Numbered from the stretch's first letter, positions 5,698 to 61,986 are shown. The stretch is 64,000 nt of DNA from an uncultured bacterium (GCA_903855135.1 CAINYB010000007.1:8402-72401), one strand, 5' to 3'. Translations and numbers: made by a program. Notes: generated by a model from the sequence alone, not told the origin.

Positions 5698-7164
5698 TTA
5701 ATTTTTTGCAAAATAGGTCTCAATCGCCTGCTCTGCTTCTGTGCATTTTATAAAATCTTTATAGCCAGGAGCACTCTCATCTGGCATCATACCAGTGCTA
5801 CAGTCATTGCTCCATAATAATTTATCTTCATATGCATGTAATGGCCCTAGACCACCAGCGCTACAAAATGCCCCGTTGTCTGCACCAAAAGCTAAAAACT
5901 TTTCGTTAGACCAATTGTTATAATTTGGTGTGATTGTTAAAACAAAAGCTCCGTTATACAAAAATTGTTTAATGCTACCAAAATTTGCTTCTTTTTTAAA
6001 ATCAGCAAATTCTTTATTAAAGCCATCTACTTGCGCGCATTCATTTGGATCACCAAAAATATCATACCCTAAACTTTGTTTATTTATTTCTTTATACAAA
6101 CTCCAATTTTCTATTTGGCCGATGTTATTTTCAATAAATTTAAAATTATCCCAAATTTTTTGATGCATACTTAATTCATCGCCACGAGTATAAATAATAA
6201 ATAAATTATTATCTTTTATAAAAACTGTTAGTTTATCATATGAAAAATCTTCATCTTTACTATAGCCATAAAATACTTGGGCTGGATAATTATCAATTAA
6301 AATATTTCTTTCAAATTTTTGATAATACATATCACTCTTAGCATTTTCTGCTTCTTGCCATTGTTTAATAGTTTTAAAACTAGTGTTCTCTGAGACCAAG
6401 ATGCTCATCGCACCATAACCCTCAGTATTAATATCTTCAAAGTAAACAAAATCCGGATAACCAGAACAATATTCAGGCATTATTATGCCGTCTGGATAAT
6501 TAAAAAAATAATGATATTTATCATTGATATATAAATTATCATAGCTATAAATAGCTGAAAACTTTTTAGTAAAATTAGCTATTTTAAAACTACGCAAAAT
6601 ATTATCTTGCACAACTGGGTTACTAATAAAACGAGTATTAATTTCAAATAAAACATTATTTTTAATAAAAACTGTTTTTTTACTCTGCCCTTTTTCAATA
6701 ACCACTTGACTTTGATCTGATATCTCTGAATTAGGATAGCTACTCTCTAAATAAGTAACCAAAGCTTTATTTCCGTCTGTTTTGATTTGTTTTTCTACCA
6801 CGCGCTTTTTATTGAATTTCTGTAAATATTCATTTTCTTTTTCCAACCATTGGTCTAAAGAGGAAAAATTTTGTGGTGAAGTAACTATTGAAATTCCATC
6901 AAAATAAAAATCTTGTGGATATTCTTCAACAAAAACCGGATTATCATTACCAGAACAATGAGATTTTTGCTCTAAATACTTAGGATATTTAAAAGAATAA
7001 TTATAAGTTTGATTATGATAAGTATTTAATAACTTATTTTCTTTATTTTTTTGGTAAAACAAAAAGCTAGCCAAAATAATAATGGCTATTATGCTAATAA
7101 TTAAAATTTTATTCTTTTTAAACATAGCTATTTTATTTACTCTAATTATATAAAAATTTGACAA
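5698..7164 (-). CDS. Secreted/membrane-anchored hypothetical protein
   Basis: 488 aa; N-terminal signal-anchor (MFKKNKILIISIIAIIILASFLF); Asn/Tyr-rich. Confidence 0.35.
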   Translation of the reverse strand: MSNFYIIRVNKIAMFKKNKILIISIIAIIILASFLFYQKNKENKLLNTYHNQTYNYSFKYPKYLEQKSHCSGNDNPVFVEEYPQDFYFDGISIVTSPQNFSSLDQWLEKENEYLQKFNKKRVVEKQIKTDGNKALVTYLESSYPNSEISDQSQVVIEKGQSKKTVFIKNNVLFEINTRFISNPVVQDNILRSFKIANFTKKFSAIYSYDNLYINDKYHYFFNYPDGIIMPEYCSGYPDFVYFEDINTEGYGAMSILVSENTSFKTIKQWQEAENAKSDMYYQKFERNILIDNYPAQVFYGYSKDEDFSYDKLTVFIKDNNLFIIYTRGDELSMHQKIWDNFKFIENNIGQIENWSLYKEINKQSLGYDIFGDPNECAQVDGFNKEFADFKKEANFGSIKQFLYNGAFVLTITPNYNNWSNEKFLAFGADNGAFCSAGGLGPLHAYEDKLLWSNDCSTGMMPDESAPGYKDFIKCTEAEQAIETYFAKN

Positions 7165-7186
7165 TTATCGCCACATCTCACATAAT
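7158..7186 (+). promoter_or_regulatory. sigma70-type promoter (TTGACA-17-CATAAT), copy A of a duplicated ~72-bp promoter module
   Basis: TTGACA 7158-7163, CATAAT 7181-7186; 45 nt identical to 8527-8571. Confidence 0.55.
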
Positions 7187-7213
7187 GCATTTATATTAAC
7201 TAAATAAAAATTT

Positions 7214-8515: not shown

Positions 8516-8540
8516 AATATTATACTAATTATATAAAAAT

Positions 8541-8569
8541 TTGACAATTATCGCCACATCTCACATAAT
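8541..8569 (+). promoter_or_regulatory. sigma70-type promoter, copy B of the duplicated module
   Basis: TTGACA 8541-8546, CATAAT 8564-8569; near-identical to copy A. Confidence 0.55.
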
Positions 8570-8595
8570 GGACTTATATTAACTAAATAAAATTT

Positions 8596-18047: not shown

Positions 18048-18359
18048 CTATGCTTGTTCGGCCATAATTTCTTTGACTAAAGGTCGTAATTCAGATCTAT
18101 AAACCACTCGATCGAGTCTTAGCTCTATTCTGTCTAACCTTCCTTCTACCTTATCTAATCTCCCGTCTACTTGATTAAATCTTTCATCTACCTCGTTAAA
18201 TCTTCTATCTACGTCGCTAGCCAAGACAGAAACTGCCTCGGCGACTTCTTGAACTGAACCGGAAAGTTCTTGGACTGAGCCAGAGAGTTTTTGAACTGAA
18301 CCGGAAAGTTCTTGGACTGAGCCCAAGATCTCTTGATTTGTTATTTCACTTTTCTTCAT
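18048..18359 (-). CDS. Small repeat-containing coiled-coil protein
   Basis: Tandem SGSVQELSG repeats x4 and RF/RL-D heptad-like repeats (RFNEVDERFNQVDGRLDKVEGRLDRIELRLDRV); ~27-nt DNA tandem repeats 18240-18340. Confidence 0.4.
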   Translation of the reverse strand: MKKSEITNQEILGSVQELSGSVQKLSGSVQELSGSVQEVAEAVSVLASDVDRRFNEVDERFNQVDGRLDKVEGRLDRIELRLDRVVYRSELRPLVKEIMAEQA

Positions 18360-22639: not shown

Positions 22640-22723
22640 GTCACTCTGTCTTCGACTCCGAGATCGCTCAGACTCGAGAAGAATTTATTTCAGGGTCTGA
22701 TTCTGAAACAAGTTCAGAATGAC
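22640..22723. repeat. R1 repeat element copy 1 (~85 nt) in the rpsB-tsf spacer
   Basis: Near-identical to 57090-57174 (about 3 differences). Confidence 0.7.
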
Positions 22724-35393: not shown

Positions 35394-35459
35394 GATTTGA
35401 CAAAAAGCTTAATATATGATATTTTGATATAAATTCGCACAAGCCAAGGAGGACACATC

Positions 35460-35594
35460 ATGGCACGCAAAGTCGAGATCACACCCGAACTCCGCCGCCT
35501 GATTGAACTGGCTGCTAAAGAAGCTGCTAGCAACAAGGTTGTGCAGGAACTACGCAAACGCAACTCCACACCAAAATCGACCTCAACAAATTAG
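35460..35594 (+). CDS. Small ORF (44 aa), high GC, strong SD; possible small DNA-binding (RHH-like N-terminus) protein
   Basis: AAGGAGG 7 nt upstream; MARKVEITPELRRLIELAAKEAASNKVVQELRKRNSTPKSTSTN; terminator hairpin gctcccc...ggggagc plus T-run at 35621-35660. Confidence 0.4.
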   Translation: MARKVEITPELRRLIELAAKEAASNKVVQELRKRNSTPKSTSTN

Positions 35595-35679
35595 TTCTGA
35601 CGTGATTTGAAACTAACTCCACACTTCCAACCGCTCCCCACCTCAAAACCGGGGAGCTTTTCTTTTACCTTGAGCGAAG

Positions 35680-35708
35680 TCGAAAGGTTTTGACTATTTT
35701 TTCGCTTT
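35680..35708 (+). promoter_or_regulatory. sigma70-type promoter (TTGACT-17-TATACT) driving a ~180-nt leader/sRNA upstream of thrS
   Basis: TTGACT 35680-35685; TATACT 35703-35708. Confidence 0.45.
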
Positions 35709-35714
35709 TAGCTA

Positions 35715-35892
35715 TACTACATGAGCTGTATAAATGATTGGAATAGCTACCAACTATTCTACCATCGGTATCCCGAGCCCCGAGCGTAGTCGAGGGGTCG
35801 AGGGACTAAATTCAACAGCCAATAAAATAAATTAAGTATAATATTGGGTGGAACCATCCTACGAAACCTAGGGTCCCAAGGCATAGTCTGTC
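35715..35892 (+). ncRNA. Candidate thrS leader RNA (T-box-like?) or sRNA ending in an intrinsic terminator
   Basis: GGGTGGAACC (35836-35845) resembles the T-box core AGGGUGGNACC; terminator cccaag/cttggg plus TTTTT at 35865-35892; a CUACCAA loop with a Thr ACC codon at about 35750; thrS ATG lies 120 nt downstream. Confidence 0.3.
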
Positions 35893-45644: not shown

Positions 45645-45729
45645 AGGCTAAATATAGCATAATTTTTATGATAAAAAAAGACCGCCCCGGTGTCATCCTC
45701 GCGTATGCGGGGACCGGGGCGGTATCAGA

Positions 45730-54606: not shown

Positions 54607-54810
54607 TCAATGTTGACTACCCTGCCTTCTGTTCTGCAAAATTTGGCTAATCAACCTAGGAAATGCATTATTGTAAAATGCCCACCAAGCAGTTCGCAGA
54701 GCATCAAGACTATAACCTGACAATTCTTTTCTTGTTATCTCAATGCCCTTAATTTGACACGATGCAATAAGTTGGCTTATCGCATCTTTTTTGTTTGTTG
54801 GACCATACAT
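54607..54810 (-). CDS. Small hypothetical protein (67 aa), elevated GC
   Basis: Start placed at MYGPTN with AGGAGA 6 nt upstream; convergent with mfd, sharing hairpin 54579-54602. Confidence 0.3.
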   Translation of the reverse strand: MYGPTNKKDAISQLIASCQIKGIEITRKELSGYSLDALRTAWWAFYNNAFPRLISQILQNRRQGSQH

Positions 54811-54921
54811 TGCCCATCTCCTTATCTTGTGAGGGAACTTCTTTTGCCTGCATACTACCATAAAAATAACTTTTTGTCAATTGCTAGTAAAATCAAAACT
54901 TGCTAAAATATAGATAAATAT

Positions 54922-55374
54922 ATGCCAGTTTTAGCCGACAACAAAAAAGCCTACTATAACTATCAAATTTTGGAAGAATTTGAAGCTGGTTTGGTATTGT
55001 CTGGCCCAGAAGTCAAAGCCGCTAAACTCGGTCATATCAATCTTAAAGGCAGTTTTGTCTCTATCAGCCCTGAAGGCGCTGTTATTAAGAACATGCACAT
55101 TTCCCCCTATCTCAAAGCCAAAATAGCCCAAATAAACTATGAACCAGCTAAAACCAGACAATTGCTCTTAAATAAACAAGAAATTGACCATTTAATAGGC
55201 AAAAATCAAGAAAAAGGCTTGACAATAGTACCCCTTTCGGTGTATACTACGCGGAGACTTGTGAAAGTAAAAATTGCCTTAGTTAAGGGCAAAAAAGAAT
55301 TTGACAAGCGTCAAACGATCAAACAACGCGATACTAATCGCGAGATCGCTCGCAAATTGAAAAATCGTTTTTAA
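54922..55374 (+). CDS. smpB: SsrA-binding protein
   Basis: ADNKKAYYNYQILEEFEAGLVLSGPEVKA canonical SmpB N-terminus; basic C-terminal tail. Confidence 0.9.
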   Translation: MPVLADNKKAYYNYQILEEFEAGLVLSGPEVKAAKLGHINLKGSFVSISPEGAVIKNMHISPYLKAKIAQINYEPAKTRQLLLNKQEIDHLIGKNQEKGLTIVPLSVYTTRRLVKVKIALVKGKKEFDKRQTIKQRDTNREIARKLKNRF

Positions 55375-55757
55375 GGGGATGTTTTATATTTGACAATAAA
55401 TCAAATAATAGGCAGCAAGTTGAGCTGACTAACTCAAAAAATGGTCAAAAAGAATAAGTGCAAAAAACTTATTTGCGAAAGCCAAAGAACTTTTCCAAGT
55501 TCCTCAACTTTCACCAGTTTTAGCCTAAACTGCTAAAACCGTTCGCTATTTATTTGCTCAAAGGTAAATAAACGGACGTCATTCATTTGAGCTGTAGCAA
55601 AGATGCGCTAAGTGCTTTGCCAAATTAAATCTTAGCTTTAAGTCAAAGTGTTTTGTAATTTTTATAGCTTTGACTTGAACTTTAAAAAATTACTAAACTT
55701 GTAGAAGTTTGTTAAGCGATTTGTTAGACAGGGGTGTGATTCCCCTCATCTCCACCA
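55375..55757 (+). ncRNA. ssrA: tmRNA (transfer-messenger RNA)
   Basis: Begins right after the smpB stop with GGGGAUGUUUUAUAUUUGAC (compare the E. coli 5' end GGGGCUGAUUCUGGAUUCGAC); 3' end GGGGUGUGAUUCCCC T-arm, then CAUCUCC pairing with the 5' GGGGAUG, then ACCA; internal tag frame ending ...SPVLA-UAA at 55526-55528. Confidence 0.8.
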
Positions 55758-55856
55758 TTCGACTACGCTCTGCTGCGCAGAACTTCGCTCATGGTCTTCG
55801 ACCACTTTTGTTTGTATAATAAACAGGTCGAATGTCCCGAGCGCAGCCGAGGGGCA
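55758..55856 (+). other. Structured 3' trailer module after tmRNA (long-range IR + hairpin with conserved loop GAGCGCAGCCGA)
   Basis: IR cattcgac/gtcgaatg brackets two small hairpins; terminal hairpin ugucccGAGCGCAGCCGAggggca; the same architecture is found after tRNA-Asp. Confidence 0.5.
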
Positions 55857-55946
55857 TTGACTAATTTTTCCCATCTTTTTAATTCGCCTAAAACGAGATT
55901 AATAAGACCAAAATAATTATTAAAAATAAATTTGAGAACAAAAAAA

Positions 55947-56480
55947 ATGTATTTCAATCGGAGTCAGACTAGTTCCGAAAAAAAATTCCGTTTCAACGAA
56001 AGAATCAGAGTACCAGAGGTGATGGTCATAGATGAAAACGGAGAAAATATCGGCGTCTTAAAAATCGCCGATGCTTTGGCCCTAGCAGAAAGTAAAGAGT
56101 TAGATTTGATCGAAGTCTCACCTTTAGCTCAACCCCCTGTTTGTCGTCTGACTGATTATGGCAAATTCCAATATCAGCAAGCCCGCAGCCAACAAAAAGC
56201 TAAAAGTAAAGTAAAAAAAGTAGAAACCAAAGGCGTAAGACTTTCCTTTAAAATCGCTCAACACGATCTTGAAGTCAGACAAAAACAAGCTGACAAATTT
56301 TTAAGCCAAGGACATAAAGTTCATGTCGAATTACGCTTAAAAGGCCGCGAAAAAGCTTTTCGTGATAAAGCAAGAGAAGTTATCCAAGAGTTTTTAAACG
56401 GTTTAAGCCAAACTCATAAAGTAGAAAGCCCGATCAAACAAATGGGCGGAACATTAAGTACCCTTATTAGTAAACAATAG
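55947..56480 (+). CDS. infC: Translation initiation factor IF-3
   Basis: NERIRVPEVMVIDENGENIGV N-domain and C-domain; ATG at 55947 preferred over the tracked TTG at 55932. Confidence 0.85.
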   Translation: MYFNRSQTSSEKKFRFNERIRVPEVMVIDENGENIGVLKIADALALAESKELDLIEVSPLAQPPVCRLTDYGKFQYQQARSQQKAKSKVKKVETKGVRLSFKIAQHDLEVRQKQADKFLSQGHKVHVELRLKGREKAFRDKAREVIQEFLNGLSQTHKVESPIKQMGGTLSTLISKQ

Positions 56481-56487
56481 CAAAGTC

Positions 56488-56685
56488 ATGAAACTCAAAA
56501 CTCACAAAGCTTTAAAAAAACGTATCCGTATCACCGCTAAGAAAAAAGTGGTTATTCGTACTGCCGGCCAAGATCATTTTAACTCTCGTGAAAGCGGCAA
56601 AGTCAAACGCAACAAACGCCAAGACAAAACATTGGCCGCTGTTAATATTAAAAATGTAAAACAACTTTTACCATACAGCTTATAG
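56488..56685 (+). CDS. rpmI: 50S ribosomal protein L35
   Basis: MKLKTHKALKKRIRIT... L35 signature; 65 aa. Confidence 0.85.
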   Translation: MKLKTHKALKKRIRITAKKKVVIRTAGQDHFNSRESGKVKRNKRQDKTLAAVNIKNVKQLLPYSL

Positions 56686-56722
56686 CCTAATGGTCCTAAC
56701 TAATAGCTAGAAAACGAAAACT

Positions 56723-57070
56723 ATGCCAAGAGTAAAAAGAGGCGTCACTCACGTCAAACGTAGAAAAAATATTTTGAAAAAGACCAAAGGTTATAACTGG
56801 GGTCGCAAAAATTTAATCAAACTTGCCCACACTGCTATCAATAAAGCTGGTCAACATGCTTTAGCTGATCGTCGTAAAAAGAAACGCGTCATGCGTCGTT
56901 TGTGGCAAGTAAAATTAAATGCCGCTGTCCATACCTTAGGTTTGAACTACTCCAGATTCATTGATATGTTAAAGAAAAATAACAGTGAATTAGACCGTAA
57001 AGTTTTGAGCCAAATCGCAGAAACTAGAAGTGCAGCTTTTGCTAACTTGGTCGCTGCTTTAAAGAAATAG
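56723..57070 (+). CDS. rplT: 50S ribosomal protein L20
   Basis: MPRVKRGVTHVKRRKNILK...RRLW L20 signature. Confidence 0.9.
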   Translation: MPRVKRGVTHVKRRKNILKKTKGYNWGRKNLIKLAHTAINKAGQHALADRRKKKRVMRRLWQVKLNAAVHTLGLNYSRFIDMLKKNNSELDRKVLSQIAETRSAAFANLVAALKK

Positions 57071-57089
57071 AAATACCCCCTGAATTATC

Positions 57090-57174
57090 GTCACCCTGTC
57101 TTCGACTCCGAGATCGCTCAGACTCGAGGAGAATTTATTTCAGGGTCTAGATTCTGAAACAAGTTCAGAATGAC
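57090..57174. repeat. R1 repeat element copy 2, embedded in the loop of the rplT terminator hairpin
   Basis: Flanked by the IR aaataccccc (57071-57080) / ggggggtattt (57181-57191) followed by a T-run; near-identical to 22640-22723. Confidence 0.7.
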
Positions 57175-57261
57175 GTGTGAGGGGGGTATTTTAATTTTAC
57201 TAAAGCTCATCTGAATCAAACGTCTTCCGCCAAAGGCGGAAGCGACAGAAGGAATGTTTTT

Positions 57262-57642
57262 TTAATCAAATATACCTTTATGCGTTTGGATATAAATAAG
57301 TATGGCTAAAAATACTCCTACTGAATCAACTAAAATGTCTATCGGACTACCCTGCCGCCCTATCACACTTAATTGATGCAGCTCATCAATAAAAGCATAG
57401 AGCACAGATGCTATGACAACAAATAACAAATAATGCCGTTGAATGCTATTTAAACTATTAGCCAATAAATAGGCAAACATAAAAAACACAAAAATATGAG
57501 CTAATTTACGCAAAATTAGATCCTGCCAAGTTGGCAAACCACTCCTTAAATCAGGGATAGATGATAAATAAAAAATTAAGCCCGCCCACAAAATTGTGGC
57601 CAGTAAATAAAGTAGCCTAGTTTGCGTGTTTGTTAATTGCAT
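57262..57642 (-). CDS. VanZ-like family membrane protein
   Basis: 126 aa; 4 TM; small VanZ-like topology; weak assignment. Confidence 0.35.
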   Translation of the reverse strand: MQLTNTQTRLLYLLATILWAGLIFYLSSIPDLRSGLPTWQDLILRKLAHIFVFFMFAYLLANSLNSIQRHYLLFVVIASVLYAFIDELHQLSVIGRQGSPIDILVDSVGVFLAILIYIQTHKGIFD

Positions 57643-57731
57643 AAAAAATTATTAGTTAATCTCCTGTTCCTCCTACAGCAATAACTATATCTTTATTCCC
57701 GCCGAAGGCGGGAATACTACAGGCTCTTGTG

Positions 57732-57760
57732 TTGACAAAATAGCTAAAATAATGTAGTAT
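57732..57760 (+). promoter_or_regulatory. sigma70-type promoter of tRNA-Asp (TTGACA-17-TAGTAT)
   Basis: TTGACA 57732-57737; TAGTAT 57755-57760. Confidence 0.5.
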
Positions 57761-57794
57761 TCTGATGTTCTATTAAGTTTTATATTTACTTGCT

Positions 57795-57871
57795 GGGGTG
57801 GTAGTTCAGCTGGTTAGAACGCCTGCCTGTCACGCAGGAGGTCGAGGGTTCGAGTCCCTTCCATCCCGCCA
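57795..57871 (+). tRNA. tRNA-Asp (anticodon GUC)
   Basis: Cloverleaf: acceptor GGGGUGG/CCAUCCC, D-arm GUUC-AGCUGGUUA-GAAC, anticodon stem CCUGC/GCAGG with loop CUGUCAC, T-arm GAGGG-UUCGAGU-CCCUU, discriminator G, encoded CCA. Confidence 0.9.
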
Positions 57872-57982
57872 CTCGATTCGCCTTTTGCTTCGCAAAAAGC
57901 TCACTCGTGGTCGTCGGTGTTTTCAACACCTTTGACCATTCTATATTATAGAATCGAGTGTCCTGAGCGCAGTCGAAGGACA
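57872..57982 (+). other. Structured 3' trailer module after tRNA-Asp (long-range IR + hairpin with conserved loop GAGCGCAGUCGA)
   Basis: IR actcgattc/gaatcgagt brackets hairpins cttttgc-ttc-gcaaaag and ggtgtt-ttc-aacacc; terminal hairpin uguccuGAGCGCAGUCGAaggaca. Confidence 0.5.
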
Positions 57983-58126
57983 TTCGTTCAAACAAATTAG
58001 AAAAATCTAAAAAAGTTGAGATGAAATTTGTGACTATTCTTAGCTTTTTTTGTTTGCTAAAAAATTAAAGGCTACTTATATTTCCCCGCCTTCCCCGCGC
58101 ACGCGGGGACCAGGAAATTATGCTAA

Positions 58127-58915
58127 TTACTTAACTGGCTTAAACTTCTTGGCCATAAAAATAATTGCTACTAAAATTACTAGCAAACTTACTAACTGTG
58201 GCAAACGAAAGCCAAATAATAAAGGCGTGGGATCGATACGGACAAACTCTAAACTAAATCTAATCAAAGAATATCCTCCCAGATAAAGCCAAGTAATAGT
58301 GCCGAGAGGCAATTTTTTTTTGCTTAAAAAATATAAAACTAAAAATAAAACTAAATTTAAAATTGACTCATAAAAAAACGTCGGGTGAAAATAAGTAAAA
58401 TTTTCAAAACCTACTACTCTATTTTCTGAACTAATCTGTATAGCGTACCAAGCCTCAAGTGGCTTGCCAAATAATTCTTGATTAAAATAATTCCCCCAAC
58501 GACCAATACTTTGACCTAAAATCAAAGCCGGCGCTAACCAATCACTCAATTGATAAAAAGCTAATTTATATTTTTTAGCAAAAATTAGTAACGTAAAAAT
58601 ACTAGCTAAAATTGCCCCCTGAATCGCTAAACCACCTTGCCAAATTTGAAAAATTTCTAAGAAATGATGCTGATAATAAGCCCAGTTAAAAAACAAGACA
58701 TGGTAAAAACGAGCACCGATAATACTAAATAATACTAAATAAAAAAACAACTCATTAGCTTGTTCAATTTTCAGCTTGGTTTTATTTTTGGCAATTGCTT
58801 GGGCATAAAAAACCGCTACTAAAATAGCTGTTGCTACAATCAAGCCATAATAATAAACATGGAATGGCCCAAAGGCAAAAAACAATTTTGAAGGCAAACT
58901 ATCGTGCCACCACAT
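58127..58915 (-). CDS. lgt: Prolipoprotein diacylglyceryl transferase
   Basis: Lgt signature GQSIGRWGNYFNQELFGKP; 7-TM profile; terminator hairpin 58062-58100 downstream. Confidence 0.85.
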   Translation of the reverse strand: MWWHDSLPSKLFFAFGPFHVYYYGLIVATAILVAVFYAQAIAKNKTKLKIEQANELFFYLVLFSIIGARFYHVLFFNWAYYQHHFLEIFQIWQGGLAIQGAILASIFTLLIFAKKYKLAFYQLSDWLAPALILGQSIGRWGNYFNQELFGKPLEAWYAIQISSENRVVGFENFTYFHPTFFYESILNLVLFLVLYFLSKKKLPLGTITWLYLGGYSLIRFSLEFVRIDPTPLLFGFRLPQLVSLLVILVAIIFMAKKFKPVK

Positions 58916-61160: not shown

Positions 61161-61170
61161 ACTTTTATAC

Positions 61171-61233
61171 ATTGTCATGCTGAACTTGTTTCAGCATTTC
61201 TTGTTGTCATGCTGAACTTGTTTCAGCATCTCT
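61171..61233. repeat. 61-bp direct repeat (left) flanking the GIY-YIG insertion; internally a tandem duplication of gtcatgctgaacttgtttcagcat
   Basis: Identical to 61583-61644 except one g/a change. Confidence 0.75.
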
Positions 61234-61236
61234 TAT

Positions 61237-61521
61237 TTACAAATCTATACTTAAATCTTTCCAGTTTGGATTTTGTTGATTAATCAAATTTATTTTCCAT
61301 TGTCTATGCCATCTTTTTAATTGTTTCTCTCTTTCTAGAGCATCTACAATATTATTCGTTATCTCCAAATATATTAATTTATCTACATTATATTTAGCGG
61401 TAAATCCTTTTATTATTTTTTCTTTGTGTTCTTTTATCCTTCTATAAATATTATTGGTTACACCAATATATAAAACATTATTATTTTGATTTGTCAGAAT
61501 ATAAACGTAATATTCTTTCAT
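61237..61521 (-). CDS. GIY-YIG nuclease domain protein (stand-alone, UPF0213-like)
   Basis: 94 aa; YVYILTN...LYIGVTNN...R..EH (GIY-YIG core). Confidence 0.7.
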   Translation of the reverse strand: MKEYYVYILTNQNNNVLYIGVTNNIYRRIKEHKEKIIKGFTAKYNVDKLIYLEITNNIVDALEREKQLKRWHRQWKINLINQQNPNWKDLSIDL

Positions 61522-61582
61522 ATATGCTTTTCTTCATTTATTTTTAGATCCTGAAATAAATTCAGGATGACTATTTACTTAT

Positions 61583-61644
61583 ATTGTCATACTGAACTTG
61601 TTTCAGCATTTCTTGTTGTCATGCTGAACTTGTTTCAGCATCTA
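61583..61644. repeat. 61-bp direct repeat (right) flanking the GIY-YIG insertion
   Basis: See the left repeat; overlaps the gatC stop codon. Confidence 0.75.
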
Positions 61645-61986
61645 TTTTTTTGTCCGCCTCGCGTCGAAGCGGGCTAATACTTGCGGAACTACTAAGTAGT
61701 CGTCTTCAACTTTTACAAATTGATCCTTAATACTTGCATCACTTTGACCCACCTCATCGGCTCTTAATAAATATTTCCCCCCAGATTTTTCCCCGGTCGG
61801 GGAAAAATCTGAAAATCCTAGTTCACTGATAAAAGGCTCAACATTTTTTAAATTTAAACTAGTCAATTTATCAAAATATGCCAAAACATCACTTAACTGG
61901 TTAGGAAAAGCTGCGATCTCTTCAGCACTTAATTCTAGCTTAGCTAAATTAGCAATTTTTAAAATTTCTTCTTTATTTAAACTCAT
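61642..61986 (-). CDS. gatC: Glutamyl-tRNA(Gln) amidotransferase subunit C (with C-terminal extension)
   Basis: N-terminal EEILKIANLAKLELSAEEIAAF GatC fold; immediately downstream of ligA and upstream of gatA. Confidence 0.8.
   Translation of the reverse strand: MSLNKEEILKIANLAKLELSAEEIAAFPNQLSDVLAYFDKLTSLNLKNVEPFISELGFSDFSPTGEKSGGKYLLRADEVGQSDASIKDQFVKVEDDYLVVPQVLARFDARRTKK

Follow-up and report, generated by a model that had tools for sequence, protein, structure and literature searches.

Few features of bacterial intergenic DNA are as common, and yet unexplained, as the short GC-rich hairpin repeats known as REPs, dRS3/NTS and RPE. For repeats of the CGTC type no mobilising enzyme was known before 2025, when they were linked to the Ssn nucleases, proteins of about 94 aa whose genes are flanked by CGTC-headed repeats (Chenal et al., Nat Commun 2025, PMC11893778). 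Ssn proteins bind these hairpin repeats only as single-stranded DNA (ssDNA), on one strand, and cut a few nucleotides upstream of the repeat, tolerating loop changes and extensions (PMC11893778).

In the 64-kb stretch of DNA from an uncultured bacterium analysed here (the window), the genes for tmRNA and tRNA-Asp encode their own terminal CCA, and each is followed, from the first post-CCA base, by one of two homologous modules of about 100 nt, termed A and B (Table 1). A sequence-only reading had described a common architecture of arms, internal hairpins and a conserved-core terminal hairpin, and this was found as described in both modules; they align with 76% column identity and share the core GAGCGNAGYCGA as part of the terminal hairpin. 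By sequence comparison, the module is an inverted doublet of one motif of about 14 nt. The 5′ copy reads YTCGAYT...CGCTCR and is often split by a hairpin, and the 3′ copy is the hairpin TG-YCYY-GAGCG-N-AGYCGA-RRGR-CA; the 5′ YTCGACT..CGCTCR block is the reverse complement of the 3′ YGAGCG.AGTCGAR core, as in the inverted doublets of REPs, and positions 55759-55770, directly after the tmRNA CCA, are the reverse complement of the hairpin core motif. Inverse and forward hairpin copies were adjacent in 22 of 123 metagenome hits. We favour, with moderate confidence, the reading that modules A and B stem from a selfish cassette directed at tRNA and tmRNA 3′ ends, and that they are copies of its non-coding arm lacking the GIY-YIG nuclease gene, and the terminal hairpin is best read as a new variant of the REP/Ssn-type hairpin repeats. 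No GIY-YIG ORF or remnant was detectable 3′ of either module in the window, so that their designation as ORF-less copies derives solely from module homology.

Table 1. Positions of stable-RNA genes, modules, hairpin repeats and nuclease gene in the window.
Feature	Position	Strand	Evidence or remark
R1, second copy	22640..22723	+	97% identical; between rpsB and tsf
Solo hairpin ACCTT / GAGCGAAGTCGA / AAGGT	35667..35688	+	
Nested double hairpin TCCC-GAG-CCCC-GAGCGTAGTCGA-GGGG-TCGA-GGGA	35765..35800	+	thrS leader; sequence and DNA fold
smpB	54922-55374		Upstream of tmRNA gene
tmRNA gene	55375..55757	+	Rfam RF00023, 111.8 bits; terminal CCA 55755-55757, left junction of module A
Module A, ORF-less copy	55758..55856	+	Homologous post-CCA modules, 16 distinct cases; arm covariation
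Module A 5′ arm TTCGACT	55758-55764		
Module A hairpin 1	55769-55781		
Module A conserved block TTCGCTCA	55784-91		
Module A hairpin 2, TGGTC/GACCA	55792-55804		
Module A hairpin 3, AT-rich	55809-55825		
Module A 3′ arm GTCGAA	55827-55832		
Module A terminal hairpin TG-TCCC / GAGCGCAGCCGA / GGGG-CA	55833..55856	+	
R1, doublet of CGTC-headed hairpins with split core motif	57081..57180	+	
tRNA-Asp(GTC)	57795..57871	+	ARAGORN; Rfam tRNA, 70.3 bits; CCA 57869-57871, left junction of module B
Module B, ORF-less copy	57872..57982	+	Sequence comparison, covariation
Module B 5′ arm CTCGATTC	57872-57879		
Module B hairpin 1	about 57881-57900		
Module B block GCTCACTCG	57899-57907		
Module B hairpin 2, TGGTC...GACCA	57908-57938		Nested CGTC-headed hairpin at 57912-57930
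Module B 3′ arm GAATCGAG	57951-57958		
Module B terminal hairpin TG-TCCT / GAGCGCAGTCGA / AGGA-CA	57959..57982	+	
TGTC-headed hairpin pair, TGTC-ATGCTGAA-CTTGT-TTCAGCAT-C	61168..61238	+	One side of GIY-YIG gene
Small single-domain GIY-YIG nuclease gene, 94 aa, Ssn-like	61240..61521	-	Pfam PF01541, E=1.3e-20
Second pair, same TGTC-headed hairpins	61580..61650	+	Other side of GIY-YIG gene

The structure of the modules is conserved. Arm pairing and the terminal hairpin were compared across 11 distinct modules from 8 contigs, with 500 shuffles; arms and terminal hairpin together were 95.8% paired (93.6% in the arm helix, 100% in the terminal hairpin stem), six pairs were changed on both sides, and none of the shuffles reached these values. 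The earlier observation that stems differ yet still pair was thereby extended. In 121 independent copies of the hairpin, stem pair 3-22 is T.G in 49 cases and C.A in one. This asymmetry and the covariation of arms and stems support selection on structure, acting on the folded single strand in tRNA sense. The +1 base was paired in all 16 modules counted by eye (T-A in nine, C-G in seven, no mismatch). The hairpin is oriented, because its unpaired 5′ flank RGCY is conserved (G at -3 in 78/117 and C at -2 in 67/117 copies); no such conservation is seen on the 3′ side. Both the asymmetry of the G.T wobble and the covarying arms are compatible with RNA as much as with ssDNA.

By nearest-neighbour energies, the terminal hairpin is weak (-1.5 to -3.3 kcal/mol as DNA). 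Its core resembles, as a lead only, the d(GCGNAGC) mini-hairpins reportedly described by Hirao and colleagues: G-C-G-N-A-G-Y-C would allow two canonical pairs, G-C and C-G, followed by a sheared G.A pair and a loop of the single base N, and larger inserts occur at the variable N in three loci (L006, L001, L253). However, the extra Y of the core must bulge, and the nearest-neighbour model did not reproduce the stability. The long-range helix enclosing the hairpins, the conserved unpaired nucleotides and the start exactly at +1 would also suit a self-cleaving ribozyme, HDV-like or hatchet-like, that cuts its own 5′ end and frees the tRNA at its CCA. We consider this very improbable: no Rfam ribozyme family, with HDV-like, hatchet, hammerhead, twister and pistol as the classes considered, matched at E up to 10 in 55300-58200 or at E up to 1 in five related loci, there is no invariant core, blocks being optional or replaced among copies, a candidate pseudoknot (CGCTC/GAGCG) is uncompensated in the tRNA-Ile variant of L165, and an HDV-type P2 is impossible because the module ends at the hairpin.

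The junction with the CCA is precise, and the occupancy of the site changes rapidly among relatives. Full modules start at the base after the CCA in 16/16 distinct cases, behind genes mostly identified as tRNA-Asp, Gly, Ile, Asn or Tyr or tmRNA (the upstream RNA gene being without identification in L093, L160, L250 and L253). The loci retrieved, a biased sample, contain 34 distinct RNA genes with a CCA end; YTCGR comes next in 11 of them, against about 0.13 expected. In L001 and L211-L214, with IF3 96% identical, module types are swapped relative to the window within orthologous flanks, type A standing after tRNA-Asp in L001 and type B after tmRNA in L001 and L211-L213; the swap occurs between genomes about 9% diverged over the compared locus. 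A third module type precedes the same infC promoter in L202 (IF3 88%). L203 carries a short module of 69 nt where the site in L205 is empty, and the flanks align with an insertion ambiguity of at most 1 nt. Flanking direct repeats around insertions showed little excess, in small counts. No module was found after the orthologous tmRNA or tRNA-Asp in L002, L003, L005 and L007-L011, the module-free relatives having IF3 56-76% identical, and in L165 only 2/4 tRNAs carry a full module. Its build varies as well: hairpin 1 is optional, short forms occur, and Acidobacteriota have the left half only. The module is dispensable and turns over fast.

These comparisons bear on the possibility that the module is a functional RNA trailer, directing tRNA and tmRNA 3′-end formation (CCA cleavage, termination or exonuclease protection) or binding a maturation protein. 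Its position strictly after the CCA, an arm helix that reaches over the CA of the CCA (C-G and A-U invariant, 11/11), folding z-scores of -2.3 to -5.1, and the L165 modules, which lie within a 16S-tRNA cluster and are therefore transcribed, would all agree with such a role. Module A hairpin 2 followed by CTTTTGTTTG also looked terminator-like in a simple scan, but this match is not conserved in other modules, and the intrinsic terminator scan did not call the terminal hairpins, which have no U-tract; a 3′ hairpin would moreover impede rather than aid exonucleolytic trimming. Given also the many orthologous genes that lack the module, the exchange of types in the nearest relative, the half-occupied tRNAs of L165 and the modular composition, we regard an RNA trailer as unlikely. 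The proposal in the sequence-only reading of a required processing or termination module is not supported, given the missing and exchanged modules, the alignment of empty and filled alleles, and the role of the module as leader of a GIY-YIG gene in related genomes. A protein-binding site, which had also been suggested, is plausible, but the partner would be a DNA-acting nuclease and not a tRNA-maturation factor.

Linkage of the module to GIY-YIG genes was seen from both directions. Hairpin-selected DNA (731 kb) contained five GIY-YIG genes by tblastn, and 5/5 start 3-75 nt past a hairpin on the same strand; L064 fits this pattern as well, and L029 has a truncated GIY-YIG ORF after tmRNA with the canonical module absent. 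Among homologues selected by protein, a CCA|module lies ahead of 5/5 (P0243, P0333, P0351, P0326, P0307), with the hairpin end about 11-90 nt before the ATG and a tRNA or tmRNA gene identified in 4/5. The module-linked proteins are 87-96 aa long, comprise the PF01541 domain only, and are 33-45% identical to the Ssn-like protein of the window; their genes have hairpins upstream only, not on both sides. An NCBIfam search of the GIY-YIG proteins gave a weak sub-threshold hit to a group I intron endonuclease model, and no relative of solved structure was found by sequence.

In most module-linked cases the hairpin ends 3-21 nt before the ATG, and inspection of the sequence by eye shows no evident separate promoter. 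Together with the sense-strand structure conservation, this could mean that the module is an expression leader only, coupling the GIY-YIG mRNA to tRNA/tmRNA transcription through junction processing or start-codon presentation, with no role at the DNA level and with ordinary recombination moving the cassette. We hold this to be quite improbable, as ORF-free solo modules and hairpins persist, in the window among others, copies of the hairpin are present within genes in antisense orientation (dapF) as well as in loops that belong to other hairpins, and homologous recombination would hardly explain exchange at a 3-nt junction.

Copies of the hairpin motif are not confined to the two modules. The 12-mer GAGCGYAGYCGA, with at most one mismatch, occurs six times in the window against 0.26 expected, a count reached by 0/100 shuffles. 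A third hairpin, which the sequence-only reading had placed near thrS, is present, but at 35777-35798 and nested in a second motif copy, the two forming the double hairpin of the thrS leader. A minihelix ending in ACCA (about 35739-35762) precedes this nested hairpin, and the solo hairpin further upstream lies between a terminator-like hairpin, recognised by eye, and the promoter-like TTGACT-17-TATACT at 35690-35718. The split variant of the motif reported in R1 is real (57106-57131). R1 interrupts the rplT terminator, separating its stem halves (57072-57080 and 57181-57190) as an insertion in the loop; at this position the terminator of L001 and of L202 is bare, reading AATACCCGCC-TTTC-GGCGGGTATT. 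CGTC/TGTC hairpins in terminator loops show presence/absence polymorphism. Restriction of the hairpin to this lineage, as had been supposed, is not supported, given its occurrence in Alphaproteobacteria, Geobacterales and other contigs, including Sphingomonas, Sinorhizobium, Trichlorobacter, cyanobacterial plasmids and metagenome contigs of GC about 0.3-0.8, and even in frame and antisense inside dapF. For most of the 121 hairpins from other phyla, a nuclease gene nearby is missing.

The window itself carries a GIY-YIG gene, inserted between gatC and gatA, whose product has >3500 homologues at about 70% identity across phyla and is a candidate trans-acting partner of the hairpin repeats of this genome. 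As in the Ssn/NTS system, TGTC-headed hairpins stand on either side of this gene. Unrelated contigs (L230-L238) have a GIY-YIG gene of 73% identity that is bordered by the same hairpin sequence; in L230, the core motif forms the loop of an SRM-type hairpin, TGTC-ATACT-GAGCGTTAGCGA-AGTAT-C. Further likenesses to that system are single-domain GIY-YIG proteins of about 90 aa encoded beside short GC-rich hairpin repeats, a fixed repeat orientation with a conserved unpaired 5′ flank, found also in the module hairpin, many copies that cluster around variable genes and are spread across phyla, and a loop of free content in which insertions are possible. However, the module hairpin combines an interior of 12 conserved nt with a stem of 4-6 bp that varies, and it fails the SRM pattern HGTCWYN(0-2)YYVSBRHN(0-5)WNVSBRGN(0-2)RNCYNB because C, not A/T, follows GTC; the sole match to the published pattern in the window, 45691-45717, is an NTS-like hairpin of another family. 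The module also differs in its form, an inverted doublet about 100 nt long, in its place immediately next to the CCA of tRNA and tmRNA genes, and in lying only upstream of another GIY-YIG subfamily (HN.K.GA.FT type), known here from sequence; the term tRNA has 0 occurrences in PMC11893778.

REP/BIME/REPIN elements, CGTC-tagged REPs, dRS3 and RPE (Di Nocera et al., 2013, PMC3733652; Bertels and Rainey, 2011) resemble these repeats in their short imperfect palindromes with G.T pairs and their inverted doublets foldable into a larger hairpin. They likewise form mosaics and arrays, occur in frame within genes, and are present in some strains but absent from others. Close to CGTC-REPs come R1 and the hairpins at 61.2 and 61.6 kb, with CGTC/TGTC heads, 8-bp stems starting in AT and 5-nt loops. 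With IS200/IS605 elements and their miniature derivatives (PATEs), the module shares insertion 3′ of a short fixed sequence with no target duplication, subterminal hairpins and strand specificity, and the target CCA may possibly pair with an internal TGG or TG of the module. Such features, together with a W'-W miniature element in L089 that adjoins the start of an IS200-like TnpA (its first 20 or so codons), might indicate that a Y1 HUH transposase (RAYT or TnpA) moves the module and that the adjacency to GIY-YIG is secondary. This is an unpromising reading, with little chance of being correct. No RAYT or other Y1 transposase was found among about 65 ORFs of the 64-kb window, and tblastn with an IS200 TnpA query gave one remnant only in 1.4 Mb, that of L089, where the inverted repeat of the miniature element overlaps the TnpA remnant; the other two copies of the element have unrelated right flanks. 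In the module hairpin TGYC is paired with GRCA, leaving no GTAG and no unpaired CGTC head, the core is 12 nt against a REP loop of 2-5 nt, the preferred location is the 3′ end of tRNA and tmRNA, and the linked gene is GIY-YIG and not Y1. A 3-nt target is also insufficient alone to explain the restriction to these ends, and CGTC repeats were reported without a dedicated transposase (PMC3733652).

Free-standing GIY-YIG homing endonuclease genes, e.g., the seg genes of phage T4, encode enzymes that have a separate DNA-binding domain and cleave double-stranded DNA. The module-linked genes are similar in lying beside a highly conserved gene without disrupting it, and in presence/absence between close relatives, as in L253 and L254, one of which has an extra GIY-YIG ORF between smpB and tmRNA. 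However, their proteins consist of the catalytic domain alone, and homing endonuclease genes are not known to carry anything like the conserved structured module.

Under the favoured reading, that of a selfish nuclease cassette, a full cassette would comprise, in order, a tRNA or tmRNA gene with its CCA end, the structured module and a small single-domain GIY-YIG gene. It would insert exactly 3′ of the CCA, where the CCA of the tRNA could pair with the conserved TGG and so complete the stem of the left motif. It is gained, lost and exchanged among tRNA and tmRNA sites within short evolutionary time, and would leave behind modules and hairpins that stand alone. The comparisons show the architecture, the CCA junction, this turnover, the link to GIY-YIG genes and a structure conserved in strand-specific fashion; the part of the nuclease is inferred. 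In analogy to Ssn/NTS, the hairpins would be the cognate sites of the GIY-YIG nucleases, read as folded ssDNA on one strand only, and their recognition or cleavage in this form could drive insertion. With strong stable-RNA promoters upstream of the cassette, the module is also transcribed, and it probably has a second use as a spacer or leader that sets the nuclease mRNA apart from the tRNA. More speculatively, and with doubt prevailing, Patescibacteria may harbour an undescribed class of selfish cassettes, in which the cognate hairpin, as an inverted doublet, precedes a single-domain Ssn-like GIY-YIG gene and the whole is inserted precisely at tRNA/tmRNA CCA ends, the CCA completing the left hairpin so that the target is read by pairing in folded ssDNA.

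The locus and its relatives offer a repeatedly used, defined insertion site (the base after the CCA), alleles that are naturally empty or filled, and a hairpin module tightly linked, one to one, with a nuclease gene; together with the exchange of modules, these open the mechanism of propagation to direct tests that need only oligonucleotides and the purified proteins of 90 aa. For annotation, covarying post-tRNA 'trailers' in genomes of candidate phyla should not count as processing signals, and small GIY-YIG ORFs beside stable-RNA genes are to be seen as parts of mobile cassettes. If these enzymes are site-specific ssDNA nucleases with new specificities, they would add to a tool family of biotechnological interest. 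If the cassette at the CCA is real, it would show how Ssn-type nucleases and CGTC/NTS-type repeats propagate and why such repeats mark recombination breakpoints, and the 20-24-nt hairpin of Alphaproteobacteria and other phyla would be a footprint of the same enzyme family.

The window comes from a genome of the Parcubacteria (candidate phyla radiation) with a GC content of about 35%, and its best match is Parcubacteria GW2011_GWA2_36_10, whose IF3 is 96% identical. A look-up of identical L20 proteins gave no strain besides the same one. The genes run in the order smpB, tmRNA, module A, infC-rpmI-rplT, a VanZ-like gene on the other strand, tRNA-Asp, module B and lgt, also on the other strand, with rpmI placed from the gene call on an identical locus (L201). 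Both the tmRNA and tRNA-Asp have an encoded CCA at their 3′ ends, and the module architecture starts at the next base in each case. The two trailers share 76% column identity when aligned, and the 12-mer GAGCGYAGYCGA occurs six times in the window at no more than one mismatch, compared with 0.26 expected; the trailer architecture that the sequence-only reading had described after both RNA genes is therefore confirmed, with small coordinate corrections. The reverse complement of the 12-mer motif lies directly 3′ of the tmRNA CCA.

Positions of the modules, related repeats and other features (window coordinates unless a fetched locus, L-number, is named)
Feature	Position	Strand	Remarks
tmRNA	55375-55757
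Module A	55758-55856		after tmRNA
tRNA-Asp	57795-57871
Module B	57872-57982		after tRNA-Asp
Solo hairpin	35667-35688
Solo hairpin	35777-35798		enclosed by another copy of the motif
GIY-YIG gene	61240-61521	minus	94 aa, single-domain (Pfam), Ssn-like; between gatC and gatA
Repeats beside the GIY-YIG gene	61168-61650		on each side a 71-nt repeat of two TGTC-ATGCTGAA-CTTGT-TTCAGCAT-C hairpins
R1 copy	57081-57180		rplT terminator loop
R1 copy	22640-22723		rpsB/tsf gap
TCCCCGCG-NNN-CGGGGA copies	23433, 30243, 45696, 51325, 58092		five, intergenic, resembling the Neisseria NTS/dRS3 repeat; the 58092 copy differs in structure from its L001 orthologue
ORF between mfd and smpB	54607-54861; compared with L001:213-465		84 aa, no Pfam match; replaced by unrelated DNA in the relative with 96% identical IF3
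Extra AT-rich DNA, tRNA-Asp module to lgt	L001:3507-4367; compared with window 58066-58113		about 860 nt, missing in the window; putative membrane-protein ORF on the other strand
Hairpin in IS91-family (Y2) transposase gene	L215:3001-3027		Trichlorobacter lovleyi plasmid pIAE1; in frame near the 3′ end; second copy in the gene on the opposite strand
120-nt miniature element	L089:3640-3760; also L121, L173		terminal inverted repeats AAGGAGATTTCT; three occurrences, flanks differ
Promoter-like TTGACA-17-TATTTT and strong Shine-Dalgarno	35397-35600		before a GC-rich, unannotated 44-codon ORF (35461-35595); terminator next, upstream of thrS
Minihelix GGAATAG-CTACCAA-CTATTCT, then ACCA	35739-35762		tRNA-acceptor-like end; loop includes the Thr codon ACC; directly precedes the nested thrS-leader hairpin, downstream of a good promoter-like site (35690-35718)
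Four to five tandem 21-nt repeats	18232-18336		inside a 103-aa ORF (18048-18359) with weak sub-threshold Pfam matches only, suggesting coiled coil
76-nt repeat, 93% identical	7137-7212, 8520-8595		TTGACA and TATAAT-like box; resembles a duplicated promoter region before two divergent small genes

Homologous modules gathered from relatives and metagenomes (16 distinct) share a consensus that opens with CCA and YTCGAYTCG and continues with an optional hairpin 1, a conserved block CTCGCTCR, a hairpin 2 of the form TGG...CCA (usually TGGCAAGCCA), a variable AT-rich linker leading to ...GAGTCGAR, and a terminal hairpin, TG-YCYY-GAGCG-N-AGYCGA-RRGR-CA, at whose variable N larger inserts are located (L001, L006, L253). 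When 11 modules are aligned, pairing reaches 93.6% in the long-range arm helix, to which the CA of the CCA belongs, and 100% in the terminal stem, with six pairs changed on both sides; no shuffle reached the observed values, and slid controls fell to 23-55% paired. The covariation first claimed from two copies thus extends to further ones. The hairpin core recurs in reverse complement as the 5′ block YTCGACT..CGCTCR, which makes the module an inverted doublet of a single motif. The left copy can be closed by pairing of the tRNA's CCA with the conserved TGG, a stem that is uninformative on covariation because it is invariant. Searches of the window against Rfam at the gathering threshold returned tmRNA, tRNA and rRNA only, and relaxing the E value to as much as 10 for both regions and for five related loci brought no other family. 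Nearest-neighbour folding failed to reproduce the comparative structure, and most predictions either lacked the terminal hairpin or had a different structure at minimum energy.

Several other structural readings were considered. A pseudoknot between the CGCTC block and the GAGCG core is possible in all modules (4-8 bp), a potential that arises because block and core are inverse copies of one motif, and a tRNA-Ile variant (L165) leaves it uncompensated. A tRNA-like cloverleaf or RNase P decoy was likewise rejected, as the three internal hairpins are wrong-sized, hairpin 1 is optional, the 3′ NCCA is absent and ARAGORN made no call. The same tRNA-Ile variant, GACCGTAGCGGA, may carry a compensated change of G3-C10 to C3-G10 within the "loop", the single compensatory example for a kink-turn or hammerhead-like tandem G.A reading of the core; the core sequence fits neither consensus, and the example can be refolded in another register. 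A ribozyme was judged less probable than a mobile element.

Comparison among relatives bears on the proposal that the module acts in 3′-end processing, termination or protection. Compared with the window, the nearest relative, L001, has the two module types exchanged (as do L211-L214, identically): a B-type module comes after tmRNA and an A-type one after tRNA-Asp. Outside the modules, the flanking DNA is orthologous, with about 80-91% identity. Ahead of the same infC promoter, L202, whose IF3 is 88% identical, carries a third type. Of two lineages with 75-76% identical IF3 and alignable flanks, one has a 69-nt short module inserted immediately 3′ of the tmRNA CCA and the other has none, and both sites are empty in more distant relatives. 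The module is thus dispensable and turns over quickly, which is unlike a required maturation signal. A functional processing trailer would account for conserved structure placed at the CCA; given the swapped types, the short form and the empty sites, it was rated below a mobile element, and the required maturation role is not borne out. Other repeats vary similarly: R1, an 85-100-nt doublet of CGTC-headed hairpins, occupies the rplT terminator loop in the window, where L001 and L202 have a bare terminator, and in L202 an NTS-like hairpin (NTS being a hairpin repeat of the Ssn nucleases) is nested within the loop of another hairpin and is absent there in the window. The two R1 copies share chromosomal orientation although rpsB and tsf lie on the other strand. 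The small ORF between mfd and smpB is a variable cassette adjoining the tmRNA locus.

The hairpin had also been proposed to be specific to this lineage, a view that its distribution overturns. A scan of metagenomes with the 24-mer hairpin pattern gave at least 120 loci; among the matches listed, the contigs range in GC from about 0.3 to 0.8 and most hairpins are distant from tRNAs. Labelled records with the hairpin include Sinorhizobium, Trichlorobacter lovleyi, cyanobacteria and Sphingomonas parapaucimobilis, whose replicons each hold it at as many as 32 places. Across 121 independent contexts among the matches listed, stem pair 3-22 is T-A in 23, C-G in 48, T.G in 49 and C.A in one, and pair 6-19 is T-A in 89 and C-G in 28. 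The excess of T.G over C.A indicates that the hairpin folds as a single strand, and from one strand only. Its 5′ flank is conserved (RGCY) and its 3′ flank is not. In two diverged dapF genes, 24 nt of hairpin are inserted in frame as eight extra codons; both metagenome orthologues (L095, L101) read ...DGLILI-CPSTxLRAG-PS... at an equal position, antisense to the folding strand. Phage-borne spread was rejected, as 2.9 million viral contigs held only six matches. In Acidobacteriota, the left half of the module, CCA directly followed by TTCGACTCG...CTCGCTCATGG, occurs after tRNA-Val and upstream of thrS; in three MAGs (L039, L040, L042, at about 1960-2050), this spacer opens with CCA, TTCGACTCG...hairpin...CTCGCTCAYGG.

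Pfam annotation of about 65 ORFs in the window found no transposase. It did find a GIY-YIG gene with pairs of TGTC-headed hairpins on both sides; across several samples, 14 contigs carry the protein at this locus. Unrelated contigs with different left neighbours encode a 73% identical protein, again flanked by nearly the same hairpin. A tblastn search with GIY-YIG proteins of 731 kb of metagenome loci, selected for the hairpin alone, recovered five genes, all starting 3-75 nt downstream of a hairpin on the same strand. The arrangement recurs after tmRNA in L064, and L029 has a truncated GIY-YIG ORF after tmRNA without a canonical module. Conversely, five homologues of the module-linked subfamily, chosen only on protein similarity and contig size, were all preceded by a CCA abutting a module, with about 11-90 nt from hairpin end to start codon. 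The CCA belonged to tRNA-Tyr (L239), to tmRNA (L243, L261), to a tmRNA-like 3′ end adjoining smpB without an ARAGORN call (L253/L254), or to an unrecognised CCA-ended sequence (L250). The module-linked proteins are all PF01541-only, of 87-96 aa. Linkage in both directions thus defines the complete element as tRNA/tmRNA-CCA, module and GIY-YIG gene, and modules A and B, to judge from their sequence, are this element without its nuclease gene. Both L253 and L254 carry CCA, module and GIY-YIG cassette after tmRNA; in just one of the two strains, a further GIY-YIG ORF of 89 aa, from another subfamily, is inserted together with a hairpin between smpB and the tmRNA 5′ end.

Related systems are known from the repetitive extragenic palindromes (REPs), which are divided into GTAG- and CGTC-tagged superfamilies, the latter without a dedicated transposase, and among which TGTC variants, G.T pairs, inverted dimers and intragenic copies have been noted (Di Nocera et al., PMC3733652). 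The Ssn proteins (cd10448) are single-domain GIY-YIG nucleases of about 94 aa that bind CGTC-headed NTS/SRM repeats exclusively as ssDNA and on one strand alone, and that cleave a few nucleotides upstream of the repeat. Altered or extended loops are tolerated, copies of the cognate repeat lie on either side of the nuclease gene, and the proteins modulate natural transformation (Chenal et al., PMC11893778). The window's own GIY-YIG gene (61.2 kb) and the TGTC hairpins around it are consistent with this system, and a hairpin at 45691-45717, a TCCCCGCG copy, is the only one in the window that matches the published SRM pattern. In contrast, the module's terminal hairpin misses that pattern, and its partner proteins form a different subfamily. 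A TGTC-headed, AT-stemmed hairpin with the module-hairpin core as its loop (L230) bridges the two types. No paper was found on the CCA-abutting module or its GIY-YIG link, and searches with motif strings gave none of relevance. A RAYT/IS200-type element was considered a poorer explanation: the window has no Y1 transposase, and the sole IS200-like remnant beside a hairpin element (L089) lies in an element junkyard. There, a 120-nt miniature element abuts the first 20 or so codons of the transposase remnant; its core consists of two neighbouring hairpins whose 14-nt loops, one the inverse and one the forward motif, are complementary to each other.

By analogy with Ssn, the module hairpins would be cognate sites of the module-linked nucleases on folded ssDNA, and recognition of these sites may underlie insertion beside the single-stranded CCA tail of the folded tRNA gene strand. 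With strong stable-RNA promoters upstream and none evident in the cassette itself, the module is probably co-transcribed with the RNA gene; in the transcript it may keep tRNA folding insulated and act as the leader of the nuclease mRNA. An expression leader only would suit the position ahead of the nuclease gene; with modules A and B lacking that gene, it too ranks below a nuclease-linked mobile element. Overall, the element is real, structured and conserved, and it is most likely a selfish element of the REP/Ssn kind rather than a tRNA-maturation device. Its insertion target is unusually precise and testable.
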